In this document: piece by piece, positions 29,260-55,213 of the stretch
How positions within the stretch are numbered: the first letter of the stretch is position 1
Layout of the letters: the number at the start of each line of letters is the position of its first letter
Source of the DNA: an uncultured Planctomycetales bacterium
GTDB taxonomy: Bacteria > Omnitrophota > Gorgyraeia > Gygaellales > Profunditerraquicolaceae
Direction of reading: 5' to 3'
NCBI GenBank assembly: GCA_964542785.1
Contig: CAZIUK010000003.1
Location: 12,946-76,945, forward strand
Length of the DNA: 64,000 nt
Position numbers and translations under genes: made by a program
The notes under the pieces: generated by a model
Told to the model about the DNA's origin: nothing
Seen by the model: the letters and a program-made list of their open reading frames with translations, nothing else
Database searches by the model: none

Positions 29260-29307
29260 TTGACAAAAACCCCATTCTTTTATATCATTTGATATAGAGT
29301 TATATCA
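29260..29307 (+). promoter_or_regulatory. Strong sigma70-like promoter (TTGACA-17-TATCAT) with an adjacent 7-4-7 palindromic operator upstream of the secretin operon
   Basis: TTGACA is at 29260-29265 and TATCAT at 29283-29288. The inverted repeat TGATATA-gagt-TATATCA lies at 29290-29307, around the expected +1. The first gene downstream encodes a MerR-like HTH protein. Confidence 0.5.
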
Positions 29308-29358
29308 AGTGCTATAACTTACCATATATCTATAATCCTTTTAACAGAGGAGACTCAA

Positions 29359-29586
29359 ATGGCCGAATCCTTAATTTCTCCCGCTGAAATAACTAAAATT
29401 CATAGCATATCTTATCAGACGGTTAACTACTATACTAACCTTGGGCTCTTAAAAGTCAAAAAGAGAGAGGCTAATAATCGTCTTTACAGCTCCAAGGAAG
29501 TCAGTTCTAGCTTAAAGAAGGTCTCTGAGCTTAAGAGCCGGGGGTATTCATTAAAGCTTATATGTGATTTATTAAGAAAGGGCTGA
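29359..29586 (+). CDS. Small MerR-superfamily HTH DNA-binding protein
   Basis: The N-terminal HTH is ITKIHSISYQTVNYYTNLGLL. The ORF is 75 aa and is the first gene of the operon. Confidence 0.5.
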   Translation: MAESLISPAEITKIHSISYQTVNYYTNLGLLKVKKREANNRLYSSKEVSSSLKKVSELKSRGYSLKLICDLLRKG

Positions 29587-29590
29587 TGGG

Positions 29591-30415
29591 ATGAGCTATT
29601 ATTCCGCGCTGGGGTTAAAAAAGGAACCTTTTTCTAATAGCCCTGACCCCGATTTTTTCTTTGAATCCAATGAACATAAAGCTGCCCTTACCAGGCTTTT
29701 GATTGAAATACGTCTGCGTAGAGGCTTAAGCGTTATTTTAGGTGATGTAGGAGTCGGCAAGACTACTCTTTCCCGTAAACTTTTTCAAATGCTAAAAGAG
29801 CGTTTGGATATACTCTTCTTTATGGTCTTGGATCCAACCGCTGAAAGCGCAGAGTTATTCTTAGAGTCGTTAGTGCGTACCTTTAACCTGCAGGATGATA
29901 TCGGTGATTCTCCGACAATACTTGATTATAAAGAGGTTATTAAAAAATTTCTCTTTCAGAAGGGGGTGGAGGAGAATAAAACTATAGTTTTAGTTGTTGA
30001 TGAAGCTCAAAAGCTTAACCCCTTGTCTTTAGAGATCTTACGCGTCTTATTAAATTATGAAACTAATGATTTTAAGCTTTTGCAGTTAGTCTTATTGGGG
30101 CAGTTGGAGCTCTTGTCTAGAATAAAAGAGATTAAGAATTTTTATGACCGTATAGTCCTTAAATATGTAATAAACCCTTTAGATGAATTAGCGACAAGGG
30201 ATTTAATTGATTTTCGTTTGAAGCATTCTGGTTTTGATTCTGAACTAAAACTTTTTACAGAGGAAGCAGTTAGCGAGGTTTACCGTTATAGCCAAGGTTA
30301 TCCGCGCAGGATTAATTTAATTTGCCATAATTCATTAAGAAATTTTTTGATGAGCAAAAAAACTTTAATTGATGCAGATATAATTAGAGAAGCAATAACT
30401 AAAAGCGCCTTATAG
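29591..30415 (+). CDS. ExeA/GspA-like AAA ATPase (secretin-assembly factor family)
   Basis: Walker A is GDVGVGKTT. The Walker B plus sensor region is LVVDEAQKLNPLSLEILRVLLNYETNDFKLLQLVLLGQLEL. Its length and motifs resemble the short GspA forms. Confidence 0.7.
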   Translation: MSYYSALGLKKEPFSNSPDPDFFFESNEHKAALTRLLIEIRLRRGLSVILGDVGVGKTTLSRKLFQMLKERLDILFFMVLDPTAESAELFLESLVRTFNLQDDIGDSPTILDYKEVIKKFLFQKGVEENKTIVLVVDEAQKLNPLSLEILRVLLNYETNDFKLLQLVLLGQLELLSRIKEIKNFYDRIVLKYVINPLDELATRDLIDFRLKHSGFDSELKLFTEEAVSEVYRYSQGYPRRINLICHNSLRNFLMSKKTLIDADIIREAITKSAL

Positions 30416-30417
30416 TT

Positions 30418-31077
30418 ATGGATAAACAGAGCTCTGACGAAAGACTCCTTAAGCTTATAGAAGGTCAATATAATACCACTACCTTAAAAGGACAGCAAAT
30501 CCCATTTCCCAAAGGACAGAAGCCCGCTATAGAGAAAATAGAGAGAAAATTTAACCTCAATAAATTATTATCTCAAATTAAGGAGCTAAAAATTGATTTA
30601 GTTTATATTAACAAAGGATTAATTTTAGCAGCTGTTTTTTTAGTTTTAGTTTTTTTATTTACTATCTTTACTCCTCCTGGGACTTCTCTTTTAAGCCTTG
30701 AGACTTTTAATAACGCTAGCTCTCGGCAGATAGAGCAGCTAATTAATATGGGGCAAAAGCAGGCGAGTTTGCGTAAATCTGCCTCCTTTAAGGATATAAA
30801 AAGGAATATATTTCTTCCTTTTAGCGCTCCTCAGGGTTTATTAAACCTACAGCAAGCTACAGAATTATCGGAAGAGATAAAAGCGTTAAAATTGGTGGGT
30901 ATTATTTGGTCGGCTGATCCTGAGGTTATGATTGAGAATGCAAAAGACACAAGGACTTATATACTTAAAAAAGGAGATACTTTTAATGAATCTTATAAGG
31001 TAAAAAATATAACACGCAATTCAGTAACCTTGCAGGTATCTACCCAAGATGGCCTAAAGGATTATGAGCTAAGATGA
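30418..31077 (+). CDS. Bitopic inner-membrane protein with a GspB/GspC-HR/PilP-like C-terminal domain (putative secretin-interacting partner of GspA)
   Basis: It has a single TM segment (GLILAAVFLVLVFLFTIF). The C-terminus LKLVGIIWSADPEVMIENAKDTRTYILKKGDTFNESYKVKNITRNSVTLQ resembles the HR/PilP fold. It sits directly between the GspA-like gene and the secretins. Confidence 0.45.
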   Translation: MDKQSSDERLLKLIEGQYNTTTLKGQQIPFPKGQKPAIEKIERKFNLNKLLSQIKELKIDLVYINKGLILAAVFLVLVFLFTIFTPPGTSLLSLETFNNASSRQIEQLINMGQKQASLRKSASFKDIKRNIFLPFSAPQGLLNLQQATELSEEIKALKLVGIIWSADPEVMIENAKDTRTYILKKGDTFNESYKVKNITRNSVTLQVSTQDGLKDYELR

Positions 31078-32609
31078 GGATTTTATTTTATTTTTTCTTA
31101 TATTTATCTTTATTTTTATTTTATCCCGGGTTAATTTTATCAGGAGAGGAAGGTACGCAGGTAAGCGCAGTTAAGGAGGTTAAGTTAGACGGGGTAAATG
31201 ATGATAGTCAAGAGAGTATTGATAAGATTTCTTTGGATCTGAAAGGGGTTGATATCAATGAGCTTTTTAAGATAATTTCTGCAAAATCCGGAATCACCAT
31301 AGTTACCTCTCCTGAAGTAAGGGGCCGGGTTTCGGTTTTTATTGATAATTTAAGTTTTGATGATGCGTTAGACGTAATCGTGACCTTACAGGATCTTGCT
31401 TACGAGAAGAAGGGGAACGTAGTAAAGGTGATGACTATGGTAGAGTATGAGCGGGCCTATGGGAAAAAATTCGGGGAGAGGAAAGAGACCCGTACTATAC
31501 GGCTTACTTATGCTAAGCCTTCTAATGTCGTCAATGCAATTACCTCCTTAAAGTCTGACCTTGGCAAGATTATTGCCGATGAATCTACCGGGACTATTAT
31601 TATAACCGATACTCCGCAATCTTTAAGTGTCATTTTAGAAGCTATTAAAGAATTAGACCGTCCTTTAGAAACTTTAGTAATTGATATTAATTATGCGCGT
31701 TTTGGGGATATAAAAAATTACCTGAATGAATTAATTACCCCCGGGGTAGGGCAGATTATCTCTGATGATAGAAGCGGTAAAGTGGTGGTTTATGATTTTC
31801 CTCAAAGGTTGGCGCGCATTAAAAACCTTTTGCAGGAATTAGACGAACAGTCCCGTCAGGTGCTTATTACTGGAGAGATTATTGAAGTAGAGATAGGCGA
31901 TAAATTTCAAAGCGGTATTGAGTGGGAAAAAATATTTAAGTCTGTGCATATGGATAATTTGGATTTAGTAGCGAAATTTCCAGTTACCCCGGCTTTGGCT
32001 AATTACGGTAAAATTAGCATAGGAACCTTGACACAGGACCATTATAATATAATAATTAATATGATTAATGAATATGGAAAGACTAAGATACTTAACCGCC
32101 CTAGGATTGTGGCGGTTAATAAAGAAGAGGCTAGGATTCTTGTCGGGACTCGCGAGGCCTATGTTACCTCTAGCCAAAGCCAAAGCGAAACTTCTGTAGT
32201 TACCGCAGAGAACATCAACTTTGTAGATGTCGGGCTTAAGCTGGTGGTTATTCCTACTATTGGCTCTGACGGTTTTATTACTATGAAAATAAAGCCTGAA
32301 ATCAGCACAGTAAAGGAGTATTTAGATACTGAGGCAGGTGGCCGTGTGCCGATAGTTAAAACTGCTGAATCGGAGACTGTGGTTAAGGTAAAAGACGGAA
32401 ATATGTTAGTTATAGCAGGGTTGATGATAGATAGTGATTTAAAAGAGGCTAAGGGGCTGCCTGATTTGTCTAAGTTGCCTATTTTAGGCCATTTATTTTC
32501 TACGAAGACAAAGGAAAAGACAAAATCAGAAATAGTTATTTTTATAACGCCAACAATTATAAGCGGCACTAGTGATTTTGGGCGCGAGGAGAGAAATGCA
32601 ATCAGGTAA
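31074..32609 (+). CDS. Secretin (GspD/PilQ family) outer-membrane channel protein, copy 1
   Basis: It has a signal peptide, secretin-N-type domains (TIRLTYAKPSNVVNAITSLKSDLGKII...TGTIIITDTPQSL) and a C-terminal secretin domain (YGKTKILNRPRIVAVNKEEARILVG ... VKDGNMLVIAGL ... LPILGHLFS). Confidence 0.8.
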   Translation: MRILFYFFLYLSLFLFYPGLILSGEEGTQVSAVKEVKLDGVNDDSQESIDKISLDLKGVDINELFKIISAKSGITIVTSPEVRGRVSVFIDNLSFDDALDVIVTLQDLAYEKKGNVVKVMTMVEYERAYGKKFGERKETRTIRLTYAKPSNVVNAITSLKSDLGKIIADESTGTIIITDTPQSLSVILEAIKELDRPLETLVIDINYARFGDIKNYLNELITPGVGQIISDDRSGKVVVYDFPQRLARIKNLLQELDEQSRQVLITGEIIEVEIGDKFQSGIEWEKIFKSVHMDNLDLVAKFPVTPALANYGKISIGTLTQDHYNIIINMINEYGKTKILNRPRIVAVNKEEARILVGTREAYVTSSQSQSETSVVTAENINFVDVGLKLVVIPTIGSDGFITMKIKPEISTVKEYLDTEAGGRVPIVKTAESETVVKVKDGNMLVIAGLMIDSDLKEAKGLPDLSKLPILGHLFSTKTKEKTKSEIVIFITPTIISGTSDFGREERNAIR

Positions 32610-32628
32610 TATTATAAATGGTATAAAA

Positions 32629-32665
32629 GGGGACAGCGACTTTTTTATCAAAAAGTCGCTGTCCC
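32629..32665. repeat. REP-like inverted pair (hairpin): GGGGACAGCGAC-ttttttatcaaaaa-GTCGCTGTCCC
   Basis: I read it directly from the sequence. It lies in the 20-bp gap between the secretin-1 stop and the likely secretin-2 start. Confidence 0.8.
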
Positions 32666-32670
32666 TATTT

Positions 32671-34611
32671 ATGAAATGGGGTATCTGCCTATTTTTATTA
32701 TTTTTGCTGATAGCGCCTTTAGGGGCTTTTATTTTTGCGCAAGGCGATATTGATTATGATGAACAGATAGATAAGATTTCTTTAGATTTAAAGAATGTTG
32801 AAATTGTAGAGCTTCTGCGCATACTTTCTCTTAAGACAAAAAAGACAATTGTCCCCAGCAAAGATATCTCAGGGCGCGTTACTATTTACCTTAATAACGT
32901 CTCTTTTAATGACGTTTTAGATATAGTCCTTTTAACTCAAGGCCTGGCTTTAAACAAAAAAGATAATATTTATTATGTTATGAGCGAAGCTGAATTTAAA
33001 AAAATTTTCGGCCGGGATTACATTGACAATAGAAAGGTAGAGACGGTAAAGCTTGCTTATGCTAAGCCCTCGGTAGTTTTTAATGCCTTAGGCCAGTTAA
33101 AATCAGATCTGGGGAAATTAGTCGTAGATGAATCAAGCGGGACGGTTATTCTTATAGATATTCCCGAAAAACTTTCTCTGATGAAAAAGATGATAAATGA
33201 AATGGACCAGCCATTGACAACCAAGGTCTACAACCTTAACTACATTAAAGCTGCTGATGCTAAAACTCAAATAACTGCCGCTATTACGCAAGGCACAGGA
33301 GAGGTTATAGTAGATGAAAGAAGCAGTAAAGCTATTGTTTCAGATTTATCTAAGAAAATGGATAAGATAGGTATGCTTGTACGCGAGATAGACGAAGAAT
33401 CGCGCCAGGTTTATGTGGAGGCTGATATTGTAGAGCTTAGTTTAAGCGATAAGTTTGAGCGCGGCATAGATTGGGAGAAGGTTTATACCTCTGCGGCTAT
33501 GGATGGATTAACCTTTGCCGGTTATTTCCCTGCTACATTAGCGCAGTTTCAAAAAATATCCGTTGGCACTTTAGCCGTGGATCACTACAAGGCCATATTA
33601 AATTTTCTTAACACTTACGGCAAGACGAATATCATCTCTCAGCCTAGGATAGCAGTTGTTAATAATGAAGAGGCAAATATTATGATTGGCGTGCGTGAGG
33701 CTTATATAACACAGACGCAGAGTCAGGCTACTTCCACTACGGTTACTTCGGAAACGGTAGAGTTTATTGATGTTGGCGTTAAGCTTAAAATATCCCCAAG
33801 GATAGGCTCTGATGGTTTTATCACTATGAAACTTAAACCTGAGGTAAGCTCTGTAAAGGAGACAGTAGAGACTTCTTTAGGCAGCCGTATTCCGATAGTC
33901 CAGACTTCTGAGTCAGAGACGACGGTAAAGGTTAAGGATGGGACGATGATTATGATTGCCGGGATGACTAAGATTGAAAATGTAGATGCGATTAAGGGTT
34001 GGCCAGTGCTTTCTAAAATTCCCTTTCTTGATATATTCTTTGGCAATCGTACCAGCGAGAAAAAGAGAACAGAGGTTATAGTCTTTTTGACTCCGAGAAT
34101 AATGCGCAGTGATGAAGGCTTAAGAGGATTAGAGATTGCTAAGATTCTCCCTAAGGAATATCTGCCTGAGAAGCTGCAGGTTAAGATAGACAGGGACCAG
34201 AAGATAGATGACGCTTTGTTTGAGACTGAGGAGAATCCGCAGGAATTACTTACGGCGCGCGATTATTATTTTAAGGGGTTAGAGTCGCAGGCATCTTTGG
34301 ATAATAAAGAGGCCATACGTTATTTTAAGAAGGCTATAGAGTTAGATAGTAAATATGCCGCGGCTTATAACAATTTAGGAATTGCTTATGAGAAGGAGTT
34401 TATGCCGGAAAAAGCAGAAGAGGCGTATCTTCAGGTTATATCTATGGACCCTTCTTTTGTCTCTGCTTATTCTAATTTAGCCTTACTTAATGAAGACCGG
34501 CTTGATTATGCCCGGGCGCTTATTTATTGGAGAAAACGAGTCCTTTACGGAGACCCTAATGATGAGTGGACTAAACAGGCTGTTCAAAGGGTTAAGGAGC
34601 TTAGCCGTTAA
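32671..34611 (+). CDS. Secretin (GspD/PilQ family), copy 2, with a C-terminal TPR-repeat extension
   Basis: It is paralogous to copy 1 (KISLDLKNVEIVELLRIL..., YGKTNIISQPRIAVVNNEEANIMIG, VKDGTMIMIAGM). C-terminal TPR repeats include AIRYFKKAIELDSKYAAAYNNLGIAYEK. The track start 32572 would translate the REP hairpin, so the more likely start is ATG 32671, which gives the signal peptide MKWGICLFLLFLLIAPLGAFIFAQG. Confidence 0.75.
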   Translation: MKWGICLFLLFLLIAPLGAFIFAQGDIDYDEQIDKISLDLKNVEIVELLRILSLKTKKTIVPSKDISGRVTIYLNNVSFNDVLDIVLLTQGLALNKKDNIYYVMSEAEFKKIFGRDYIDNRKVETVKLAYAKPSVVFNALGQLKSDLGKLVVDESSGTVILIDIPEKLSLMKKMINEMDQPLTTKVYNLNYIKAADAKTQITAAITQGTGEVIVDERSSKAIVSDLSKKMDKIGMLVREIDEESRQVYVEADIVELSLSDKFERGIDWEKVYTSAAMDGLTFAGYFPATLAQFQKISVGTLAVDHYKAILNFLNTYGKTNIISQPRIAVVNNEEANIMIGVREAYITQTQSQATSTTVTSETVEFIDVGVKLKISPRIGSDGFITMKLKPEVSSVKETVETSLGSRIPIVQTSESETTVKVKDGTMIMIAGMTKIENVDAIKGWPVLSKIPFLDIFFGNRTSEKKRTEVIVFLTPRIMRSDEGLRGLEIAKILPKEYLPEKLQVKIDRDQKIDDALFETEENPQELLTARDYYFKGLESQASLDNKEAIRYFKKAIELDSKYAAAYNNLGIAYEKEFMPEKAEEAYLQVISMDPSFVSAYSNLALLNEDRLDYARALIYWRKRVLYGDPNDEWTKQAVQRVKELSR

Positions 34612-35965
34612 CTTAAAACCAAAGAAGAGCTTTTTTCAGGAGAAACTCCTCCTCTTTTCTTTTTTCATCCTTATTTTTAGCACCTTTCTTATAGGATCTG
34701 TTGGTATATCCAAAATATATTGGTTTAATGCTAAAGTTAAAGATTTAGCCCAACATAACCTTAAATTAGAGTCCGCAGTTCTTGAGATGAGGATAAGGAA
34801 TGCTAATTTTGCGATGGGGGTGCGTAACTATGTTTTTTGGCGCGCTTCACGCTACTTGCAGTCTGTATCCATTGCCGGAGACTTAGATAAGATTTTTATT
34901 TCGGTAGAAGATTTTGAAGAGCATCTTAAAGCGTATCGCCAGAGTTCTTATCTAAAGGAGCAGAGGGATTGGGCAGATGAAGTAGCTTTAGCTTTTGATG
35001 GGGTTGTCCAGCAAGGCAAGAGGCTTGTTGAGCTGCTTGGAAAAGAAGAACCGGGAAAGATAAGCGAGCTTATAAACAGCCAGTTGATGAGCTTTGAGAA
35101 TAATGTTTACCGAATTGATGAATTTTTAGATAAGGCGATGGGCAAGTCTAATCTTGCTGAGGTAGAGCGCCAGATGCTTATTACAGCTCAGGATAAGGAG
35201 CAGGCTATTAGTTTTTTGAAGGTAAGCCTTATTGTATCTATTCTTATGGGGTTAGTTATTGCGTCTGTGGTATATCGCAGGATAGTCCGGGAAAAAGCTT
35301 ACCGCCAGAAACTCTTTGACCGGATTGTAAATCTTGAGGAGGACGAGCGTAAGAAGCTCTCTACCGCGGTTCATGATGAGATGGGCCAAGACTTAAGCGC
35401 CCTTAAGATTTATTTAGGGTTAATTTCTCAAGAGCTGCCGGATATAGCTGAAGATACTAAGAAAAAGCTTGATGAGTGCAAAAAGATCGCTTCCGGGCTT
35501 ATCGAGAAGAGCCATAATATTTCTTTTCTTCTCAGGCCCCCGGAGTTAGACGAGGTAGGGCTTTTAGAGAGCATAGAATCGCTTCTTCTTGAGGCTAAAC
35601 ATTTAACGGGGATAGAGTATTCATTTCAGAAGCCTAAGCTTTTGCTGGATTGTTCGGCAGAGAGGAGTCTTTTGCTTTACCGCGCCTCTCAGGAACTTTT
35701 AACCAATATGATAAAATATGCAAAGGCAAAAAATGTGGTTTTACGTTTAAATAGGATCGGTGATTCCGCTCAGCTTTTTTATTATGATGATGGTTGCGGG
35801 TTTGATCTTGCAAAGTTAAAGTATAAATTATTGCGCCGCAGAGAGGATAAGTTTGGCTTGGGGTTATTGGGCCTGAAAGAAAGGGTGGAGCTTTTAGGCG
35901 GGGATATAAAGATAAATTCGTCTTTGGGGGGAGGCACGACTATTATAGTCAATTTGCCGCTTTAA
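34559..35965 (+). CDS. Sensor histidine kinase (NarX/LiaS-type, HisKA_3 + HATPase)
   Basis: It has two N-terminal TM segments and the H-box LSTAVHDEMGQDLSALKIY. The ATPase G-boxes include DDGCGFD and GLGLLGLKERVELLGG. The start is probably ATG 34559/34562 rather than the track's 34490, because the 5' end overlaps the secretin stop. Confidence 0.75.
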   Translation: MMSGLNRLFKGLRSLAVNLKPKKSFFQEKLLLFSFFILIFSTFLIGSVGISKIYWFNAKVKDLAQHNLKLESAVLEMRIRNANFAMGVRNYVFWRASRYLQSVSIAGDLDKIFISVEDFEEHLKAYRQSSYLKEQRDWADEVALAFDGVVQQGKRLVELLGKEEPGKISELINSQLMSFENNVYRIDEFLDKAMGKSNLAEVERQMLITAQDKEQAISFLKVSLIVSILMGLVIASVVYRRIVREKAYRQKLFDRIVNLEEDERKKLSTAVHDEMGQDLSALKIYLGLISQELPDIAEDTKKKLDECKKIASGLIEKSHNISFLLRPPELDEVGLLESIESLLLEAKHLTGIEYSFQKPKLLLDCSAERSLLLYRASQELLTNMIKYAKAKNVVLRLNRIGDSAQLFYYDDGCGFDLAKLKYKLLRRREDKFGLGLLGLKERVELLGGDIKINSSLGGGTTIIVNLPL

Positions 35966-35967
35966 TC

Positions 35968-36609
35968 ATGCCTATAAGAGTCGCTATAGTCGATGACCAC
36001 GATATAATCCGTTTGGGGATAAAGAGTGTCTTAGAGAAAATCACAGATTATGAAATTTGCGCTGAAGGAGAGAATGGCGAAGAAGCCTTAAAGATCGCGC
36101 AAAGCTTATCTCCGGATATTATGTTGTTAGATATAACTATGCCTAAGCTTGGAGGGCTTGATATTATTTCCAGGATAAAACGTGCCAGTCCTAAAACCCG
36201 CATTGTGATTATTTCGGTGCATAAATTAGGGGCGTATGTTTTAAAGGCCTTAAGGCAAGGAGTAAGCGGGTATCTTAATAAGGAGAATGTTGCAGAAGAA
36301 CTACTTCTAGCACTTTCAAGCGTATCTAAGGGTAAGGTTTATTTTGGTCAAGAGATATCTCAGTATCTTGCAGAGACTGTTAAAAACCCGGACCAAAAAC
36401 CCTTGTCTCACAGCCTTCTGAGTGAAAAGGAATTGGATATTCTGCGTTTGGTAGTTGAAGGGAAGACAGCAAAAGAGATAGCAGAGGTTACTTTTCTAAG
36501 CCATCGGACAGTTGAAAATTATAAGAATAGTATTATGAAAAAGCTTAATTTACACAAGACAAGTGATTTGATTAAGTACTCATTAGAGAACAAAATACTT
36601 GATATTTGA
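35968..36609 (+). CDS. NarL/LuxR-family response regulator (REC + LuxR HTH)
   Basis: The receiver reads RVAIVDDHDIIR...IMLLDITMP. The C-terminal LuxR HTH reads LSEKELDILRLVVEGKTAKEIAEVTFLSHRTVENYKNSIMKKL. Confidence 0.85.
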   Translation: MPIRVAIVDDHDIIRLGIKSVLEKITDYEICAEGENGEEALKIAQSLSPDIMLLDITMPKLGGLDIISRIKRASPKTRIVIISVHKLGAYVLKALRQGVSGYLNKENVAEELLLALSSVSKGKVYFGQEISQYLAETVKNPDQKPLSHSLLSEKELDILRLVVEGKTAKEIAEVTFLSHRTVENYKNSIMKKLNLHKTSDLIKYSLENKILDI

Positions 36610-36614: not shown

Positions 36615-36644
36615 TAAATGTCCAATCTAAAATGTCCATTCTAA
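36615..36644 (+). repeat. Tandem 15-bp direct repeat (AAATGTCCAATCTAA / AAATGTCCATTCTAA) just downstream of the response-regulator gene
   Basis: I read it directly from the sequence. It is a candidate regulator-binding site, with a single REP copy immediately after it. Confidence 0.5.
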
Positions 36645-36656
36645 GGAGAAGGGAAA

Positions 36657-36669
36657 GGGGGACAGCGAC
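36657..36669 (+). repeat. REP-like single copy GGGGACAGCGACT
   Basis: It is an exact copy of the 12-mer core. Confidence 0.7.
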
Positions 36670-36787
36670 TATTTATAAGAGTAATATTTATAATAAAATA
36701 GAGTAGTTTTACGATTGTTATTTTAGGATAAATATAATATACTTAAGGTACAGGTTAAAAATAAAAAATGGCAGGTATAATGAAAAT

Positions 36788-36818: not shown

Positions 36819-36872
36819 GGGGACAGCGACTATTACTATTTTTGCGCTATGATAAAAAAAGTCGCTGTCCCC
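36819..36872. repeat. REP-like inverted pair with a 30-nt spacer (GGGGACAGCGAC ... GTCGCTGTCCCC)
   Basis: The spacer contains the likely ATG (36849) of the downstream gene. The second arm AAAAAAGTCGCTGTCCCC is translated as KKVAVP within the signal peptide. Confidence 0.8.
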
Positions 36873-39338
36873 ATTTTGGTTGCGTGTTTTTTTGTTGTCG
36901 CAGCGCAGGCAGAGGTCTTGGTAATTAAAGCTCCCTTAACTTGGGGGCTTGATAAATCCGCAGAATACCCTTTGCCAAAAGTATTAAACGGTATTTATAC
37001 AACTGACCAGTTTGTAGCTACTGAAGGACAAGTTAGCGCTATTACGATGAATTGGGAATCAAGGGGCGCTATATCAATGGAGGTAAGCGCTGATAATGGG
37101 CTGCATTATACTCCGGTAATAAATGGCGTTCCTTTAGAGAGCGGTTTTGTAAGTGGAGATAGGATTCGCTGGCGGGCACAAGCGCTAAATGAGGATGCGC
37201 AGTTAACAGCGGTGAATCTTTCTTATTCTGATACATCCGGAGTAATAGGGGATTTTGGCCAGCCACTTTTAAGCGGATTTATGTACCGTAAAGAATTTAT
37301 AGTGCGCAATGATTCTAGAGAAGATTTATACAATTATCAGATGAAGCTAAGAATAGGGGAAAGTGAATTAGCCAAGGATGCTGATATCTGCCTTTCTAAA
37401 AAAGCAAAAGAGGATTTTAGCGATATAAGAATTAGCGCATCTGATGGTAAGCGTATTTTATCCTATTATCTTGAAAGCATAGAAGGCGAGCTTCCAGGAA
37501 AGCGCAGTGCTGTAATTTGGGTTAATATTCCTCAACTGCCAAAAGAAAAAGATTTAAAGCTTTACCTATATTATGGGAATCCGCAGGCTTTAAGTTTATC
37601 AAGCGGCGAGCAGACGTTTGATTTTTTTGATGATTTTAAAGACCCTGCCAAGAGCAATGAGAAATGGATAACCTATACAGAAAAAAACGGTACCTTGCAA
37701 TTAAAAAATGGGGAAATTAAGCTTGATGCAGCCGAAGCCATTACAAAAGATTTTCTTTTTAAAGAAGGAATTGTTGAGTATCCCGTAGAGATTGAGAGCG
37801 GTTTTGAAAACAGTTTAAACTTGCGTGTCCAGAATGGTAACTCTTATGATATTCCGCTTTGGTCGGGTTATTCTTCTTTATACAAAGGTGCAGAGCATTG
37901 CATTGCTGTAGAGGGGACAGTAAGAAATAATGACACAACTGCTCTACCTTCTTTTGCCGGAAATAGGTATTACTACCGTTTTGAATATTTTAATGGTAAT
38001 ATAGTCTTTAGCCGTTTTGATGCTTTGACTAAAGAAAAGCAGGCAGAGGCAGTCTTTAAGTCTGATTCTTTGCAAAAAATAGGCTATCTGTCTTTGCGTT
38101 CCGGAGGTGACGGGAATGGCAAGAATGTTATTCGTTTTGGCGCTATACTTGTGCGTAAAGCTGCTTTAATCAAACCGTATTTTGTTTCAGCAGGAAAAGA
38201 AGAGCAACTCTCTTTGCCTATTTTTTCCGGTACAACTCTTTCTTCTTTTGGGAGCCTTACTTTGGCCAAAGGGGCAATGAGCGGGCATTATATTTCAAGT
38301 AATATCCGAAGCGAAGACCAGATAAGGATCATGATCCCTGACTGGGATATTGATTCTCTTGGAGGAGAGTTTATCTTACATCTTTCTGCTGATGCCGGCG
38401 GGTCATATAAGAAAGGCTGCGAAAAGGGGAAGTATTATTATGCTTCAAAAAAGGATTTTGTCCCCGGGAAAAACTTAAAGATACGCATTGACCTTTTAAA
38501 AGGGGCAGGCTCCGAAGTCGAAAAAGTCGCTGTCCCCTTTGTGAAGGTGGAGCATAGGGCAGGAAAGGTAAATATTATTTCACCTAATGGCAGAGAGGTC
38601 TGGGAGGTAGGAAGCAGTAAGAAGATTAGCTGGAGTGCCTTGGATTACGATGAAACTTATCTTTTTGATTTAGCTTACTCTGTCAATGGAGGAAAGGATT
38701 ATATTGAGATTATAGCCAATAAAGATAATGATGGAGTTTATACTTGGGTTGTCCCGGATAAAATTACTAAAATCGCAAAGATAAAGATATCTGATTCTTT
38801 GGATAAAGGTATTTATGATCTTTCCGATGCTTATTTTTCTATTGTAGCTAGAGAAGATTTAAGCATTCAGGAAGAGAAAAAAGAAGAAGCAGGGGTAGTA
38901 GTGCAGGCAGCGCTAAAAGATAAAGCCAGTAAAGAGAGCAAAGATAAGAAAGATAAAGTTACTAAAGAAAGCAAAAAGAAGAAAGATAAAGTTAGCAAAG
39001 AGAACAAAAAGTTGCCGGGGAAAAATCTTTATGATCTTTTAATTAAGATAGGCGATAGCAGGTCTTCCTACAGCGAGGGGGATATTGTTATCTTAAGGCC
39101 TTCAGGTTATATTTGGAGCGTTGAAGAGAGGGAGAAGTTTTTGATTGCGCAGGTATACCTAACTGAAAAGCAGGCTGAGGAATTAACCTCTCCTTTAAAA
39201 ACAAAGGATGGAGAGATATTAAGCCGCAGGAAATATAGGATTAACTTGCTTAAGCAGGGGCTTAAAGGTTTGACAGGGTCAATTAAAAGGCCAAAGGGCT
39301 CTTTTGAGGCAGGGGTTATTGAGGATAAGGCAAATTAG
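36849..39338 (+). CDS. Large secreted protein (~830 aa) of unknown function with a K/E-rich low-complexity segment
   Basis: The likely start at 36849 gives the signal peptide MIKKVAVPILVACFFVVAAQA. The track start 36768 lies within a TATAAT-like element and runs through the microsatellite and REP. The K/E-rich segment is KDKASKESKDKKDKVTKESKKKKDKVSKENKK. Confidence 0.5.
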   Translation: MIKKVAVPILVACFFVVAAQAEVLVIKAPLTWGLDKSAEYPLPKVLNGIYTTDQFVATEGQVSAITMNWESRGAISMEVSADNGLHYTPVINGVPLESGFVSGDRIRWRAQALNEDAQLTAVNLSYSDTSGVIGDFGQPLLSGFMYRKEFIVRNDSREDLYNYQMKLRIGESELAKDADICLSKKAKEDFSDIRISASDGKRILSYYLESIEGELPGKRSAVIWVNIPQLPKEKDLKLYLYYGNPQALSLSSGEQTFDFFDDFKDPAKSNEKWITYTEKNGTLQLKNGEIKLDAAEAITKDFLFKEGIVEYPVEIESGFENSLNLRVQNGNSYDIPLWSGYSSLYKGAEHCIAVEGTVRNNDTTALPSFAGNRYYYRFEYFNGNIVFSRFDALTKEKQAEAVFKSDSLQKIGYLSLRSGGDGNGKNVIRFGAILVRKAALIKPYFVSAGKEEQLSLPIFSGTTLSSFGSLTLAKGAMSGHYISSNIRSEDQIRIMIPDWDIDSLGGEFILHLSADAGGSYKKGCEKGKYYYASKKDFVPGKNLKIRIDLLKGAGSEVEKVAVPFVKVEHRAGKVNIISPNGREVWEVGSSKKISWSALDYDETYLFDLAYSVNGGKDYIEIIANKDNDGVYTWVVPDKITKIAKIKISDSLDKGIYDLSDAYFSIVAREDLSIQEEKKEEAGVVVQAALKDKASKESKDKKDKVTKESKKKKDKVSKENKKLPGKNLYDLLIKIGDSRSSYSEGDIVILRPSGYIWSVEEREKFLIAQVYLTEKQAEELTSPLKTKDGEILSRRKYRINLLKQGLKGLTGSIKRPKGSFEAGVIEDKAN
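38526..38537 (-). repeat. REP-like single copy (GTCGCTGTCCCC) embedded inside the coding sequence
   Basis: GAAGTCGAAAAAGTCGCTGTCCCCTTT is translated as EVEKVAVPF, the same KVAVP peptide as in the signal peptide. Confidence 0.6.
38931..39011 (+). repeat. 33-bp imperfect tandem repeat (about 2.4 units) encoding the KESKDKKDKVT / KESKKKKDKVS low-complexity segment
   Basis: The units are aaagagagcaaagataagaaagataaagttact and aaagaaagcaaaaagaagaaagataaagttagc. Confidence 0.6.
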
Positions 39339-39379: not shown

Positions 39380-40987
39380 ATGAGAAAGAAGTTATTAGTC
39401 TTCTGGGTTTTATTTTTTGCTTTAGTATTTTTAAAGAGTACCTTTGCCAATAATATAACTGTAAGCAACCTTTCGCTGGATAACCTGGATTCAGCTTCAG
39501 GCACAGTTGAGATAAAGTTTGATTTAGATTGGGAGAATAGTTTTTCCCCGGAACAAGACCCTGATGCTACAACATTTGACGCAGCGTGGGTATTTGTTAA
39601 GTTTTACAGCGGAGATCCTAAGAAGTGGCATCATGCGCGGCTAAGCGAAGGCGGGACCTTCCAGTTGTATAGCACGGAGACAAAATTAGGGATTACCGAG
39701 GATAGAGTAGGTGTTTTTTGCCGCCCGGGAAACAACCAAACCCTTATCTGGAACTATCGTGATGCAGGAGTCAGCTTGGAAGAGGAGGATATAAAGATTA
39801 AGGTCTTTGCCATTGAGATGGTATATATACCAGAGGGAGAGTTTTATATAGGTTCCGGTATGCTAGAAGCTTATTCGTTTTATGACGCCTCTGATCCTAC
39901 TCGGAGTCAGCCTATTAAAATTACTGCCTCTTCTCCCTGGCTCTCTGATAGGGCTAATGGCGCTGAAGGCACAGGAATACCAGGAGATATAGCGTTTAAT
40001 AAGACTACCAGTCCTGGCTATGGTAATCTGCCAGTAGTAAGAACCCAATTAAACCCTAACTATCCTACAGGATACAAGGGGTTTTATATCGCAAAGTATC
40101 CGATCTCTCAGGGTCAATACAGGGATTTTTTAAATACCCTGACTAGGGAAGAGCAGCATAGGCTGGTTGGGAAAACTATAAGTGACACTAACGCATCTTT
40201 CTCACTTCCTGACAATATCCCTCCAGGAACAACAGAGGTAACTAATGTATATGTAATGGAGAATTCTCCCGCCTTAACTAGGCGTGTTTCAATAAGATGC
40301 GATAGCCAGATAGATGCGTATGCTCCGGTAACTTTTTACTGCGACTTAAATGGAAACGGTATTCCTAATGAAGAAGATGATGGAGAGTGGCTCCCGATGA
40401 GTGACATCTGGTGGCACTTTAACGGAGCATTCTGTGATTGGGCAGGGTTGCGGCCTATAACTGAATTAGAATATGAAAAAGCCTGCCGCGGTCCAGTTTA
40501 TCCTGTCCCAGGGGAATTGGCTCATGGGCTTTCTAACGTTAATTATCTTTCGGTTTCCGCTGCCCAGGTAGGTAACCCCGGGCGAATTGATGAGTATGCA
40601 ACTAATAACGGGAACTTTCGTTGGATATATGGTACCTCGTGGATAATGCGGGTAGGTTTTGCCGCGACCCCTAATTCTACCAGGGAATCAGCAATTTCTT
40701 CTTATTATGGGGTAATGGATATGACATCCCAGGTTAGTACTCCTGTTGTAAGTGTAGTTGCTCTTACTTTTGACGGACAACATGGAGATGGAGAGTTAGA
40801 CGCGTCAGTAAACACAGTGCATAATGTGCCTAACTGGCCTACAGATCATGCAGGCTGGCGCTCCGGTGACAGGAATTATGTGAGTGCGGTTTCGTACCGT
40901 TATTCTGATAGCAATCTGGATCCTTTAGTATGGAAAAAGAATCGTACTGGAAATAGCAGTATACGTCCTTGCCGGACTGCTTATTAG
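39380..40987 (+). CDS. Secreted protein with an FGE-sulfatase (SUMF1/formylglycine-generating-enzyme-like) domain
   Basis: It has a signal peptide. KGFYIAKYPISQGQYRDFL and WWHFNGAFCDWAGLRPITELEYEKACRG resemble the conserved FGE-sulfatase domain blocks (...GKYEVTQ.QY..F / SW.DA.AFC.W...RLPTEAEWEYAARG). Confidence 0.55.
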   Translation: MRKKLLVFWVLFFALVFLKSTFANNITVSNLSLDNLDSASGTVEIKFDLDWENSFSPEQDPDATTFDAAWVFVKFYSGDPKKWHHARLSEGGTFQLYSTETKLGITEDRVGVFCRPGNNQTLIWNYRDAGVSLEEEDIKIKVFAIEMVYIPEGEFYIGSGMLEAYSFYDASDPTRSQPIKITASSPWLSDRANGAEGTGIPGDIAFNKTTSPGYGNLPVVRTQLNPNYPTGYKGFYIAKYPISQGQYRDFLNTLTREEQHRLVGKTISDTNASFSLPDNIPPGTTEVTNVYVMENSPALTRRVSIRCDSQIDAYAPVTFYCDLNGNGIPNEEDDGEWLPMSDIWWHFNGAFCDWAGLRPITELEYEKACRGPVYPVPGELAHGLSNVNYLSVSAAQVGNPGRIDEYATNNGNFRWIYGTSWIMRVGFAATPNSTRESAISSYYGVMDMTSQVSTPVVSVVALTFDGQHGDGELDASVNTVHNVPNWPTDHAGWRSGDRNYVSAVSYRYSDSNLDPLVWKKNRTGNSSIRPCRTAY

Positions 40988-41036
40988 GAAGTTAACAGGT
41001 TTTTGTAGGATTAAAGAGGATTTAAAAGAGGGAAAG

Positions 41037-43922
41037 ATGGAAAAGAAAGAGAGAATAAACATAATAATTTCAGTAATTCTTATTCTTACGGCAGCATCCC
41101 TGTTTTTTCCGCTTTCTTCTGCCTTTGCCGGCCAATTTACCGGAGGTATCGGCGACGGAGATGCTTGTGCAGAGGTCTCTCTCTCCTCTCTGGCTACGGT
41201 TCCAGAAGTAGTTTCAAAGATTATCCGGGCAGGGGAGGAGATATTATCTATCAGCCGCTTAAATAACAAAGTTACCGTTGTCTTGACTAACCCCTACCCT
41301 AATAATAACCTTAAACCCGGCCAGTATATTGTGATTTATACCGGGATCTCTGGGACTCCTTCTTTTAACGGCAGATTCTTAATTGATAGCGTCTTAAGCC
41401 AAAGCGAGTTTACCTATCAGCAGGGAGGCAGTAATGAGTCAGGGTCTATAGGAAGCTTTAGTTTTGCCGGAGGAGATTTTAGTACCCTTACTAGCTGGGA
41501 GGCTGATTTACCGTATGATTTAGCCAGTACAGGCACGCCGCATATCGCCGTATGTTATAATGATTGGGTATCAGGGCTTAAAGATAACCTTGTGGTTGAA
41601 GGACATACAACCACCCCTAAATATTATATAAAAATTACTCCTTTTAGGCTTGACCGAAATACTGGGAAACCAAAGTCAGGCTTTTTTATTGCTCCTTCAA
41701 GCGGAAATGCAATAATCCTCCAGGATAATGCTGATTTGGTGCTTGATAGTATTGAAGCTACTGCTCCGGTAGTGATCAATGCCGGAGTAGCCCGGGTTGA
41801 TGATCGTTCCATCTATTCAAAGTTAGAGGTAGGTAGCGGCGCGACCTTGGCTCTTAGCGGGGCGAATTTTGGTAATTTAAAAGAGATGGTTATAAACGCA
41901 GGTTCAACCCTTGAATATCTTGACGGTGATTCTTCTTCTTTAGACAACCCAATAGCCTTGCTTAACCAGGATCACCATCATCTTAAGCTTTCTAAGGGGT
42001 TTTTTAAGTTACCGGCAGATAATTTTACTATTATGGGTAATATTGATATCGGATCACAGGCAAGCTTGGATGCGACAGAAAATAATTATAATATCAAAGT
42101 TGCAGGAGATTGGTTCTGTTTGGGGAATTTTAATTCGCGCGTGGCAGGAGTGGAATTTAACGGAACTAACCAAAAGATATCCGGGTCAACTTCTTTCTTT
42201 AATTTTAGAAAAGATAACTCAGGCCCTGGTACCTTAATCTTGACCTTTGAAAGCGCATCTCTTCAGACTGTCAAAGGCAGGCTTGACTTAGGAAGAGGAA
42301 GCAGGGAAAATTTTTTAAAGTTGCGCAGCAGCCAGGAGGGGAGTCAGTGGGAGCTTGACCTTCAGGGAGATAGCTTAGCCGGGTTTGTAAATGTAAAGGA
42401 TTCTGATGCTTCCAGGGGAAATAAGGTTTATGCTACAGCTTCTTTGGATTCCGGGAATAATGATAATTGGGAGTTTAACAGCGCTGAAGGAGGGCCTATC
42501 CAGTCTGTGAGCGTTTCTCCTTCAAGCGGGTATCGAAAGATCGGAGAGAGTGTAGGGTTTACAATTAAAATCAAGCCGCAATATTCTAACAGCACTCTTT
42601 TGTATTATGAATCTTATTTTGGAAACCATTTAATTGAGCTAACCAGGGAAGAAGACGGTATAACTTTTAATGGTTCCTATATAGTTAAAGAGGGTGATCC
42701 TGATATAGCTGATCCTTCTTTGTCAGGCAGGCTTGAGATTATGCCTTTTGGGGGAGCTACATCTCTTTTTAGCGCGATTTTATCTAAAACCACTCTGTAT
42801 ATAGATGCTAATAAGCCGGTAGTAAGTAGTGGAAACATCTTAGTTACCACTAGTCCTGATAATGGTGAATTTTATCGCGCTGGCGAAGATATTACTCTTA
42901 CCTGGGATAATTCTGCTTCTGGAGACGGGAGCCATAATCCGGATATTGCCCTAGTTACCGCTGATTTTTCAGCTTTAGGCGGAAGTTCTGCTGTAGAGAT
43001 GTCAGAGAGCGAAGGTATTTATACCGCAAGCTATACAGTTTCTGCTGAGAGTATAAATGGTACCCATGATATCTTAGTTACTGTTACGGATAAGGCCGGC
43101 AACCAGACCTCTCTTGCCGCCCCTACAAAGGTAAGAGTTGTCTCTGGCTCTCTTACGCTTACCAGCCCCACTACCCCGGTAAGCTATGTTGCCGGAACAA
43201 CCCAGAAGATAACCTGGAATGCTTCTGGAGATATAAGTACGGTAAATTTAAAATATTCCATTGATTCAGGACAAAGTTATAAGACCATTAACACTGTAGG
43301 GTCTTTGACCGGGGGGAATACTTGTGACTGGGTAGTTCCTAGCGATATAACTTCTAAGGCCCGGGTTAAGGTTGAGGATACTGCCATTAAGCAGGTTTAT
43401 AGCGCCTCAAGCGTAGATTTTAGCATTGTTTATCCTTCTGTTACTATTACCAGTCCTAATGGAGGGGAGTCTTGGACAGCAGGCTCTAAACAGAATATTA
43501 CTTGGACAACGAATTCACCTTTAGTGACTCATCTTAAACTTGAATATTCTGTTGATGGAGGATCAAGCTGGAATTTAATTGCCGCAGCAGTTCCTAATAC
43601 AGGATCATATTTATGGAAACTGGATAACCTTTTTGCTGTAGATACTGTTAGGGTAAGGGCGACAGGCTTAGCCCGTAATCAAATGTTAACTTTAGGCGGA
43701 AGCGCTATGGACAAAGTTTCTTCTGGCGCTTGGCTGGAGGATAACTATAAGGTTTTAGCCATAGAGGTCTTAAGTGATTTTAACGCAGGAGACACTCTGC
43801 TGATATCTGGTCTAAAGTTCGGTAATTTTATTGTCTCTCCTGCGAATAACCTGAAGTTAAGCGCTGGAAGTAATTCTGTTATAGATGATAAGAAGATTAC
43901 AGTTATAGCGCCTTCTGTTTAG
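41037..43922 (+). CDS. Large secreted surface protein with repeated Ig-like/beta-sandwich modules
   Basis: It has a signal peptide or TM segment. Repeated modules include ITWNASGDISTVNLKYSIDSGQSYKTIN and ITWTTNSPLVTHLKLEYSVDGGSSWNLIA. Confidence 0.5.
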   Translation: MEKKERINIIISVILILTAASLFFPLSSAFAGQFTGGIGDGDACAEVSLSSLATVPEVVSKIIRAGEEILSISRLNNKVTVVLTNPYPNNNLKPGQYIVIYTGISGTPSFNGRFLIDSVLSQSEFTYQQGGSNESGSIGSFSFAGGDFSTLTSWEADLPYDLASTGTPHIAVCYNDWVSGLKDNLVVEGHTTTPKYYIKITPFRLDRNTGKPKSGFFIAPSSGNAIILQDNADLVLDSIEATAPVVINAGVARVDDRSIYSKLEVGSGATLALSGANFGNLKEMVINAGSTLEYLDGDSSSLDNPIALLNQDHHHLKLSKGFFKLPADNFTIMGNIDIGSQASLDATENNYNIKVAGDWFCLGNFNSRVAGVEFNGTNQKISGSTSFFNFRKDNSGPGTLILTFESASLQTVKGRLDLGRGSRENFLKLRSSQEGSQWELDLQGDSLAGFVNVKDSDASRGNKVYATASLDSGNNDNWEFNSAEGGPIQSVSVSPSSGYRKIGESVGFTIKIKPQYSNSTLLYYESYFGNHLIELTREEDGITFNGSYIVKEGDPDIADPSLSGRLEIMPFGGATSLFSAILSKTTLYIDANKPVVSSGNILVTTSPDNGEFYRAGEDITLTWDNSASGDGSHNPDIALVTADFSALGGSSAVEMSESEGIYTASYTVSAESINGTHDILVTVTDKAGNQTSLAAPTKVRVVSGSLTLTSPTTPVSYVAGTTQKITWNASGDISTVNLKYSIDSGQSYKTINTVGSLTGGNTCDWVVPSDITSKARVKVEDTAIKQVYSASSVDFSIVYPSVTITSPNGGESWTAGSKQNITWTTNSPLVTHLKLEYSVDGGSSWNLIAAAVPNTGSYLWKLDNLFAVDTVRVRATGLARNQMLTLGGSAMDKVSSGAWLEDNYKVLAIEVLSDFNAGDTLLISGLKFGNFIVSPANNLKLSAGSNSVIDDKKITVIAPSV

Positions 43923-44022
43923 CAAGGCGGATTTGGGGATAGTTTTGTTTAGGTAAGGGGATTATAGAGGTTTTAAGATAAGAGTAGTTAGAGATGGTTA
44001 GAAGATGTGGGGTGAATAGATT

Positions 44023-53495: not shown

Positions 53496-54200
53496 ATGAT
53501 AAAAATACTATTGAAGGGTAGGTTTAATTTTATTCTAATTATCTTTATTGCGTTATTTCTTTTTTTTGTTCCTGCGGAAGCTGGCATTACTATGCGCCTT
53601 ATGGCAGTAAACCCGGCTGATTCAGAGCAAACCGTTCCGATAAAGGTTTATCTTCCTGTAGAAGTCAAGCCCGAAGATATAATATATAAAGACGATTTAG
53701 ATGTAGCTTATGATACCCAGCAGGGAAGTTATTATGTTTTTGGAGAATTCCTCTTAGCCCCTAAAGAGGTATTAGAGAAAGAAATAGAGATAAAGGATAT
53801 CTGGGTTATAGATTTAAGCGAGGTTGAAATGTTACGCTTAGAGGCTAAGGATATGCTGAAGTCTTTTAAGAAGACAAAGTATTATGAACGCGCCCAGCTT
53901 ATTTATAATGGGATAGATAAAAAGCTTAAAGAGGTAGAAGAGGAGCAAGATTTGTCTTCTGCCAGCCCTGCTTATAAGATTTCAAATTATAGAAATTCTT
54001 TAAGTTTGATTGATTCTGTCAAGGCCGATCTTGTCTCAGCTAAAACCCTTTTATCTGAGGCTTTACCTAAAGGTATGGCTAAGCTTACTTGGGGAGTTAT
54101 TTTGTTTATTGTGCTTTTTTTAGGGGTTTTAGGGGGAGGATCTTTTTTTATTTGGCAACACCAGTCAAGGCTTGAATCTGAAGAGAAGACCAAGGAGTAA
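53496..54200 (+). CDS. Membrane protein of unknown function, with an N-terminal signal/TM segment and a C-terminal TM anchor
   Basis: The N-terminus reads FILIIFIALFLFFVPAEA and the C-terminus reads LTWGVILFIVLFLGVLGGGSFFIW. Confidence 0.4.
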   Translation: MIKILLKGRFNFILIIFIALFLFFVPAEAGITMRLMAVNPADSEQTVPIKVYLPVEVKPEDIIYKDDLDVAYDTQQGSYYVFGEFLLAPKEVLEKEIEIKDIWVIDLSEVEMLRLEAKDMLKSFKKTKYYERAQLIYNGIDKKLKEVEEEQDLSSASPAYKISNYRNSLSLIDSVKADLVSAKTLLSEALPKGMAKLTWGVILFIVLFLGVLGGGSFFIWQHQSRLESEEKTKE

Positions 54201-54266
54201 ATAAAATAAATACAAATATTATCAGGACAGATAGGGCAAGCCCTTTTAATACCTAAACGTTAATTA

Positions 54267-55046: not shown

Positions 55047-55075
55047 AATACTGCTATAATAAACAGTGATATAGT

Positions 55076-55087
55076 GGGGACAGCGAC
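55076..55087 (+). repeat. REP-like single copy GGGGACAGCGAC (left flank of the RayT remnant)
   Basis: It is an exact 12-mer in forward orientation. Its partner at 55700 is in reverse orientation. Confidence 0.75.
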
Positions 55088-55213
55088 TTTTTGACTTTTT
55101 ATTTTTAGCTCTTTGATAATTTTTACTTAAATTTTTAAGTTAGATTTCCTTCCTTGCCGCGTCTATTGATAGTGAAGGTGATAGATGATATAGGGCCTAA
55201 AAGGAAGGGGTGG

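Follow-up and report, generated by a model that had tools for sequence, protein, structure and literature searches.

The operon at positions 29260-36609 of a 64,000-nucleotide stretch of contig CAZIUK010000003.1 (assembly GCA_964542785.1; source lineage Candidatus Omnitrophota), referred to below in its full length as the window, probably encodes one half, that of the outer membrane and periplasm, of a split type II secretion system (T2SS) conserved in Candidatus Omnitrophota, a reading to which we assign a probability of roughly 70%. Its seven + strand open reading frames (ORFs) encode, in order, a MerR-like protein, an AAA+ ATPase, a 219-amino-acid (aa) bitopic protein with a GspB/GspC-like HR domain, two tandem secretins, the second of which carries a C-terminal tetratricopeptide repeat (TPR) module, a sensor kinase and a response regulator. 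The initial annotation of this DNA had read the operon as possibly a non-canonical, orphan apparatus that, from sequence alone, could not be assigned to any described system. This is replaced here by the outer half of a split T2SS, as a complementary gspE-F-L-M-G-(H/I)-J-K-like cluster was found in four relatives. The same annotation had named, as the finding that would overturn it, a standard system split in two, with pilins just outside the window and the secretins being a PilQ and a GspD of different systems. This is largely what emerged, with the pseudopilins placed by synteny just beyond the window edge, but the two secretins are paralogues and not a PilQ plus a GspD.

The case for one split T2SS-type machine rests on two clusters that are complementary in content and physically linked. 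The second cluster begins within the window, where the GspE and GspF homologues that the initial annotation had placed about 25 kb away were confirmed, at 61602 and, for the partial GspF, from 63228. The window GspE exceeds the cut-off of NF053729 (53 bits against 38) and lies below that of TIGR02533 (559 bits against 630); GspF follows GspE in orthologous loci as well, matching TIGR02120 at 6.8e-85 in locus L042, and both of these T2SS components are therefore represented. Neighbourhoods of four GspE orthologues (67-77% identity) were fetched, and all four share the same content: a giant ORF (3838-6162 aa), a 200-234-aa membrane protein, Peptidase_MA_2, REC-GGDEF and F-type ATPase genes, and then GspE, GspF, a PilM/N-like GspL-type protein, a GspM-like protein, GspG, two to three prepilin-type proteins and a GspK-like protein. 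In L042 the GspG passes the TIGR01710 cut-off of 88.85 with 122.7 bits, and the PilA and ComGC models score far lower. No secretin, HR protein or GspC is found in the gspE clusters of these four relatives, and the secretin module has no GspE-type ATPase, platform protein or pilin. A scan for the pilin and pseudopilin motif (G-F-T-L-I-E type) found none in any of the six window frames, and in the 10-kb flanks of ~30 related loci returned only two spurious antisense matches, which bears out the remark in the initial annotation that such genes are missing. The gspE clusters of the relatives contain no PilT, and no prepilin peptidase GspO was found in the window or the fetched flanks.

The two clusters lie 31 kb apart on the same strand in the window and 36 kb apart, again on the same strand, on one 1.19-Mb contig of another genome (L038 and L043). 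In a divergent lineage (L047) they stand head to head, ~430 bp apart; here the secretin module is beside an F-ATPase reduced to b/delta and beta, after which come GspE and GspF. The metagenome-assembled genome (MAG) ADurb.Bin205 appears to have two GspE paralogues.

Domains of the window proteins were called with Pfam and NCBIfam profile searches, and topology was judged by hydropathy. The seven genes have the order, packing and overlaps that had been described for them, adjoining genes overlapping or sitting 2-4 nt apart, and their domain matches agree. By hydropathy the MerR protein and the ATPase are soluble, both secretins have signal peptides, and the kinase has two transmembrane (TM) segments around a ~160-aa periplasmic loop. 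The start of the kinase is most likely the ATG at 34559/34562, and not 34490; its orthologues measure 447-477 aa. A scan of species-representative genomes gave 31 loci, in which ORFs were called and matched to the window proteins. The order MerR–AAA–219-aa protein–secretin 1–secretin 2::TPR–kinase–regulator, followed by a DUF2341 gene, recurs in essentially every sufficiently long locus (~30 related genomes), and a chance arrangement is excluded because this order is found in ~30 species; the synteny that the initial annotation had proposed as a check is thus present. The 219-aa protein has full-length homologues, almost all of them labelled Candidatus Omnitrophota. The MerR gene, highly conserved in sequence, heads the module in nearly all loci, and the kinase and response regulator hold the same position in relatives. 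One genome (MAG JBDRLC01; L037 and L039) contains the whole module, MerR to DUF2341, twice. In an outgroup contig (L009) the layout is MerR–AAA–T2SSC-like protein–one secretin–two separate TPR proteins, and this single secretin with separate TPR proteins suggests that the TPR partner is ancestral, and that secretin duplication and TPR fusion came later. Directly upstream of the operon lies a stand-alone receiver-domain protein of 128 aa (28823-29209), which occupies the same site in close relatives; distant relatives have an orthologue ~8 kb upstream on the opposite strand.

The ATPase and the 219-aa protein form, by architecture, a GspA/GspB-like pair, as the initial annotation had recognised; this assignment draws on the modelled HR fold together with the published pairing of GspA with GspB and the precedent of AAA-only GspA proteins. 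The 219-aa protein has a short cytoplasmic N-terminus with an invariant SDE[RK]LLK[LI]IEG motif in the alignment, one TM segment (57-94), a variable linker and a conserved C-terminal beta domain, which is predicted to be a periplasmic HR domain, and is hence laid out like GspB/OutB. AlphaFold2 (AF2), run with an alignment, gave residues 157-218 a predicted local distance difference test (pLDDT) score >90, and the top four Foldseek matches of this domain in the PDB were PilP (3jc8), GspC-HR (3oss_C), PilP (2y4y) and LspC (7oio). The match to 3oss_C, which comes from a structure of HR in complex with GspD, has a TM-score of 0.70 (normalised to the target). Distant homologues of the 219-aa protein match PF11356 T2SSC, and the HR (GspC) component of a T2SS is therefore represented by the fold of residues 157-218, with a predicted link to the N0 domain of the secretins. 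The protein has no PDZ domain, coiled-coil domain or polyampholyte C-terminal extension, and a BLAST search with E. coli K-12 GspC gave no match. GspB/OutB has the same HR fold and binds to the secretin's N0 domain, and is usually paired with GspA; an archetype with an AAA-only GspA and GspB occurs in Alteromonas and Pseudoalteromonas (PMC9239104).

The gene for the ATPase adjoins that for the HR protein in all loci, and the ATPase is the most conserved member of the module, its Walker A GDVGVGKTT, DEAQ and SQGYPRrIN motifs being >90% conserved in 29 orthologues. An AAA+ domain with P-loop and DEAQ, encoded beside a gspB-like gene, is what is expected of GspA/ExeA. The match to TIGR03015 spans the full length of the protein (1.3e-50) and reaches 172 bits, with a cut-off of 324.5. 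No solved structure is homologous to this ATPase.

Secretin 1 and secretin 2 align collinearly, with two gaps, at 48% identity. Both match Pfam Secretin (7e-43 and 9e-43), as well as Secretin_N, STN and N0, and have the N0, N domains and core of a GspD-type outer-membrane secretin, in divergent form; the initial annotation, in calling them tandem paralogues of which the second has a TPR extension, was correct. Secretin 1 and secretin 2 score, respectively, 227 and 208 bits with PilQ TIGR02515 (cut-off 284), 223 and 202 bits with GspD TIGR02517 (cut-off 351) and 173 and 164 bits with MshL TIGR02519 (cut-off 250), lower than with PilQ or GspD. For each secretin the PilQ and GspD scores are nearly the same, and the pair is therefore not one PilQ and one GspD. 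Their sequence matches in the PDB are PilQ and GspD, and Pfam found no AMIN domain in either.

A neighbour-joining tree of the secretins from 23 genomes, built without bootstrap, has two reciprocally monophyletic clades with matching internal topologies; identity averages 0.62 and 0.66 inside the clades and 0.47 across them. This points to one old duplication followed by co-inheritance. In the genome with two modules, each copy contains both secretins, each sister to its counterpart in the other copy. All domains are equally conserved in both secretins, and this equal conservation, with the joint duplication, argues that both serve the same machine; mixed and separate rings would be alike compatible with it. 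Clade-specific residues were considered as a sign of different partners, but the nine positions concerned are scattered and uninformative. In L040 the two secretins cluster together, and not one in each clade. Keyword searches of the open-access literature, which were not exhaustive, returned nothing relevant on tandem or heteromeric secretins, or on Omnitrophota with secretin; as far as was found, no conserved pair of secretin paralogues, one with a tethered TPR module, has been reported in other secretin systems.

The tail of secretin 2 is a strongly conserved three-TPR module of ~115 aa (~34252-34608), preceded by a K/E/A-rich linker of very variable length, ~50 aa in the window and far above 100 aa in some genomes. 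Its best named matches are Tgl and PilW, which are weak (29 bits against a cut-off of 225), and these hidden Markov model matches are the basis on which it is compared with pilotins; a single-sequence AF2 model of the tail reached a pLDDT of 57.5, too poor for a fold search. In L047 (ENA ERZ27247100 k141_645942) secretin 2 has 613 aa and no TPR family match. A tentative idea, and in our estimate a somewhat unlikely one, is that the two paralogues make up one obligate mixed channel, either an alternating ring or two coupled rings, adapted to the passage or display of the giant fibre-like proteins of 3000-6000 aa whose genes lie between the two halves, in which the TPR arm would act as an internal pilotin. 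We know of no described hetero-oligomeric secretin.

Table 1. Features of the secretin operon, the gspE cluster and the region between them, in window coordinates.
Feature	Position	Strand	Basis
Sigma-70-type promoter, TTGACA-17-TATCAT	29260..29288	+	11/12 consensus positions
Two operator-like palindromes, 20 bp apart	29281..29319		Repeat analysis
MerR_1 helix-turn-helix-only protein, 75 aa, without effector domain	29359..29586	+	Pfam MerR_1 3.7e-09
AAA_22 ATPase, 274 aa	29591..30415	+	AAA_22 1.1e-17; TIGR03015 1.3e-50
Bitopic 219-aa protein, GspB/GspC-like	30418..31077	+	No family match; HR fold by model
Secretin 1, 511 aa (STN/N0, two Secretin_N, Secretin core; without S domain)	31074..32609	+	Pfam
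REP-like hairpin, 16-bp stem, between the secretin genes	32629..32666		Repeat family
Secretin 2::TPR	32671..34611 (alternative start 32596; ORF start also given as 32572)	+	Pfam secretin and TPR
Sensor kinase, HisKA_3 and HATPase_c	34559..35965	+	Pfam/NCBIfam
NarL/LuxR-type response regulator (REC and GerE)	35968..36609	+	Pfam
Regulatory region of the DUF2341 gene	36616..36745	+	Tandem AAATGTCCAWT, GAGTA repeats, -10-like TATAAT
DUF2341 secreted protein, conserved eighth gene of the module	36849..39338	+	Pfam DUF2341 1.7e-22
Three large signal-peptide proteins	39380..53370	+	FGE-sulfatase-like, 535 aa; Ig-like, 961 aa; 3115 aa without family match
Trio after the giant gene: 234-aa membrane protein, Peptidase_MA_2, REC-GGDEF diguanylate cyclase	53496..56614	+	Pfam
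F-type ATPase genes: epsilon, c, b/delta fusion, alpha, gamma, beta	56599..61599	+	Directly upstream of gspE
GspE/PilB-type ATPase with N-terminal MshEN (c-di-GMP-binding)	61602..63227	+	T2SSE 1.2e-129; MshEN 3e-14
GspF, N-terminal part, runs off the window	63228..64000	+	Translation

The DNA ahead of the module is itself conserved. The strong promoter reported by the initial annotation is present, and an extended form of it, CTTGACAAAA..TATA.TTT.TTATATCATTT, is kept in 24 promoter-region sequences of related loci, with a conservation of this region that far exceeds expectation from protein divergence. The 7-4-7 palindrome of that annotation had to be redrawn as two repeats: a perfect 7-2-7 (TATATCA-TT-TGATATA, 29281-29296) that overlaps the -10 hexamer, and a 10-2-10 (AGTTATATCA-AG-TGCTATAACT, 29298-29319) that is 90% complementary. 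In relatives a TTATAG..CTATAA-type element is kept at the palindrome position, after the extended promoter motif. A second regulatory region precedes the DUF2341 gene. Its tandem AAATGTCCAWT (36616-36640) is the sole such pair in the window, and its GAGTA repeats include AGAGTAGTTTTAC at 36700-36712. The arrangement AATGTCCA-N3-8-AATGTCCA recurs in 17 fetched loci, each time just upstream of the DUF2341 gene, and stays with this gene even where insertions or rearrangements part it from the regulator. The MerR-like protein and the LuxR-type regulator are candidate binders, giving two DNA-binding proteins for two motif types. Components of cyclic di-GMP (c-di-GMP) signalling are nearby, including the REC-GGDEF protein at 55736, the MshEN domain of GspE and PilZ genes at 3589 and 3947. 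Neither Rfam nor tRNA scans gave a match anywhere in the window.

Between the two clusters lie genes for large proteins that may be the cargo of the system. The DUF2341, FGE-sulfatase-like, immunoglobulin (Ig)-like and 3115-aa proteins all begin with Sec-type signal sequences, in agreement with the giant secreted proteins that the initial annotation had placed directly downstream of the operon. The FGE-like gene follows DUF2341 in L044/L045, and a giant ORF of 3838-6162 aa stands at the equivalent place in relatives. Judging from their position between the clusters, it is plausible that these large proteins are substrates or displayed products. According to one proposal (PMC4858521), DUF2341 is a PilY-like adhesin domain associated with pili. 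Read as its longest ORF, from 36768, the DUF2341 gene opens with eight asparagine codons in a row and sequence derived from a repetitive extragenic palindromic (REP)-like element; its true start is probably the ATG at 36849, which gives a normal signal peptide. The trio of membrane protein, Peptidase_MA_2 and REC-GGDEF is also found in L042, L043, L048 and L049, and the adjacency of the F-type ATPase genes and gspE is likewise kept in relatives. No gene for subunit a is in sight at the F-type ATPase operon. ATPases of this 'symbiotic' type 2/3, non-respiratory F-type have been described next to 'T4aP' clusters by Seymour et al. 2023 (PMC10066038).

Of the REP-like palindromic element, GGGGACAGCGACT, the window contains 14 arms where chance would give 0.54, and almost all of them are intergenic (32629-32666, 36658, 36819-36872, 38525, 53391-53449, 55076, 55699 and 59281-59338). 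The candidate starts of secretin 2 at 32596 and 32671 lie on either side of one such hairpin, and another straddles the likely DUF2341 start codon. Several relatives have 'GDSD(F/H)F'-coding inserts at the secretin 1/secretin 2 junction. Between the trio genes, a 117-aa ORF (55297-55650) has no Pfam match and resembles, by eye, a Y1 transposase of the IS200/RAYT type in its C-terminal part; Y1_Tnp genes are present intact in the related loci L007, L009 and L043, and this IS200-like remnant may be the partner of the REP-like elements. Further to the left, an ORF at 7-3423 has a Peptidase_M54 domain and may continue past the left window edge. After it, within 1-15780, come two PilZ genes and genes for a solute-binding protein, two ABC permeases, a major facilitator superfamily transporter and GH2-like proteins. 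This succession is the pattern that West-Roberts et al. described downstream of a giant gene, so that there may be a second giant-gene region to the left of the window. An intein that carries a LAGLIDADG homing endonuclease domain interrupts a ribonucleotide reductase gene (19404-23003).

A working scheme can be proposed for the split T2SS. The ATPase and the HR protein would act as GspA and GspB, docking onto the N0 domains of the secretins and aiding their assembly. The two secretins, made in fixed proportion from coupled genes, would form the outer-membrane conduit, and the tethered TPR module of secretin 2 would probably be a pilotin or accessory factor that is built in. The downstream cluster, which begins 25 kb away, would supply the inner-membrane platform and pseudopilus (GspE-MshEN, GspF, GspL/M-like proteins, GspG and minor pseudopilins). 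The Sec-exported large proteins, beginning with the always-present DUF2341, would be the likely substrates or surface-displayed products, and expression would be set by the phylum-conserved promoter with its tandem palindromic operators and by the direct-repeat region before DUF2341.

Several points weigh against this reading. The pseudopilins and assembly platform of this genome are placed by synteny alone, and should lie just past the right window edge, which falls in gspF; the sole exact match to the window GspE is on a 5.3-kb contig, and the genes beyond the edge were deduced from orthologous loci. In the relatives the GspL-, M-, I/V-, J- and K-like assignments are weak and below cut-off. 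The complement of secretins, GspE and prepilin peptidase was judged from the window and the fetched loci. Neither secretin reaches the curated cut-off for GspD or PilQ, and the two are thus divergent. The ATPase shares with E. coli K-12 GspA only a 51-residue P-loop match (BLAST, E = 0.001), and has neither a TM or other hydrophobic segment nor a match to the periplasmic peptidoglycan-binding domain PF01471 that are expected of GspA; AAA-only GspA proteins have been described, however. To our knowledge, proteins of 3000-6000 aa are also far larger than any known T2SS substrate. Lastly, the gspE cluster is labelled T4aP by Seymour et al. and tied to attachment, which makes an adhesive pilus possible.

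Such a pilus is the subject of an alternative that we consider unlikely, namely that the locus builds a non-retractile type IV pilus of the mannose-sensitive haemagglutinin (MSHA) kind for attachment, with the secretins as the exit for the pilus, DUF2341 as a PilY1-like adhesin and the giant proteins reaching the surface by another route. An MSHA-like set can indeed be assembled from the MshM-like ATPase without TM segment, the MshN-like TPR module and the MshEN-bearing ATPase, and the PilY-like proposal for DUF2341 (PMC4858521) and the PilZ and GGDEF genes nearby would suit it. Against this, the major pilin-like protein of a relative passes the GspG equivalog cut-off, with PilA and ComGC far lower; the minor pseudopilins include a GspK-like protein and the platform proteins are of the GspL/M and not the PilMNOP type; the MshL model scores below PilQ and GspD and below its own cut-off; and PilT is not in the gspE cluster.

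The secretins might instead serve two inner-membrane machines, a T2SS and a second pilus or DNA-uptake system, and be merely co-located after duplication. The paralogues have been distinct since an ancient duplication, only secretin 2 has a TPR tail, and Omnitrophota genomes also carry Tad systems (Seymour et al., PMC10066038); these Tad systems have their own RcpA secretin, however (Seymour et al., PMC10066038). The two secretin genes adjoin or overlap, with a single promoter, ATPase and HR protein between them, the module duplication in L037/L039 took both of them, they score alike on the PilQ and GspD models, and few clade-specific fixed residues are seen in any domain, N0 included, so that two machines appear quite improbable. 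A self-contained secretin exporter, driven by the AAA+ ATPase without a pseudopilus and moving the downstream giants, which corresponds to the non-canonical apparatus of the initial annotation, is barely credible: while pilin genes are missing within 10 kb in ~30 loci and the DUF2341 and giant genes always follow the module, the ATPase is cytoplasmic, its sole link to the membrane is a single-pass protein without a channel, a complementary cluster that itself has no secretin or GspC is consistently linked, and every part has a known T2SS counterpart.

The Omnitrophota are uncultured, ultra-small and probably predatory or parasitic bacteria that are known for the largest predicted bacterial proteins. 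The split T2SS reading joins two features that had been published separately, the Gsp genes near giant genes and the F-type ATPase beside a 'pilus' cluster, into one conserved supercluster of 35-45 kb with an outer half, an inner half, candidate cargo, c-di-GMP inputs and regulatory DNA. The secretin pair with its TPR module offers a concrete target for structural and heterologous-expression work, and the operator sequences could be used in tests of how the system is switched on.

Set against known systems, the locus is closest to T2SSs with GspA-GspB. The secretin N0, N domains and core, and an HR bitopic protein encoded beside an AAA+ ATPase, are held in common, as are GspE, F, L/M-like proteins, G, minor pseudopilins and a K-like protein (the pseudopilins and L/M/K-like proteins from relatives). 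It differs in that its genes form two clusters, separated by 25-36 kb in which cargo-like genes, genes of c-di-GMP signalling and an F-type ATPase operon are found, and in having two paralogous secretins in place of one. An S domain and a GspS-type pilotin are lacking, and a TPR module is instead fused to secretin 2; there is no separate GspC with a PDZ domain; the ATPase has no TM segment or PF01471 domain; and a MerR-like regulator and a two-component system are encoded within the locus itself.

The MSHA type IV pilus (MshK-L-M-N-E-G-F) also combines a secretin, an ExeA-like ATPase without TM segment and a TPR component, and its secretion ATPase has an MshEN c-di-GMP-binding N-terminus. Here, however, the TPR module is fused to a secretin and not a separate MshN, there are two secretins, MshI/J-type genes are missing, the pilin of relatives is of the GspG type and MshL is not the best secretin match; an MSHA identity was rejected on the below-cut-off MshL score and the GspG-type pilin. 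A type IVa pilus (PilQ) was also rejected, given the scores below the TIGR02515 cut-off, the missing AMIN domain and, in relatives, the L/M-type platform, GspG-type pilin and lack of PilT. The XrtA/PEP-CTERM exopolysaccharide system, suggested by TIGR03015, was set aside on the score of 172 against 324.5, the faint PrsK and PrsT matches and the absence of an exosortase from the scanned window proteins. An origin from a mobile element or phage (pIV-type) was dismissed as the chromosomal context is conserved across many Omnitrophota genomes and there are no phage genes. TPR lipoprotein pilotins (PilF/PilW, Tgl, TadD) resemble the tail of secretin 2 in being small TPR modules associated with a secretin, but the tail is fused to the secretin C-terminus via a variable linker and is not a lipoprotein.

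The nearest published loci come from the same phylum. A 2023 preprint by West-Roberts et al. described a T2SS-like locus near Omnitrophota giant genes and likewise suggested a link to secretion or display, and a 2026 preprint again associates flanking secretion genes with giant genes. The texts of these two preprints and of Seymour et al. make no mention of tandem secretins, an AAA/HR pair, a TPR fusion, dedicated regulators or cis-elements. The West-Roberts locus shares with the present one its Gsp-type genes with giant ORFs, and differs in its rcpC and peptidyl-prolyl isomerase (PPIase), which are absent from this window, while the clusters of Seymour et al. 2023 have the same F-type ATPase–GspE adjacency as is found here at 56599-63227.

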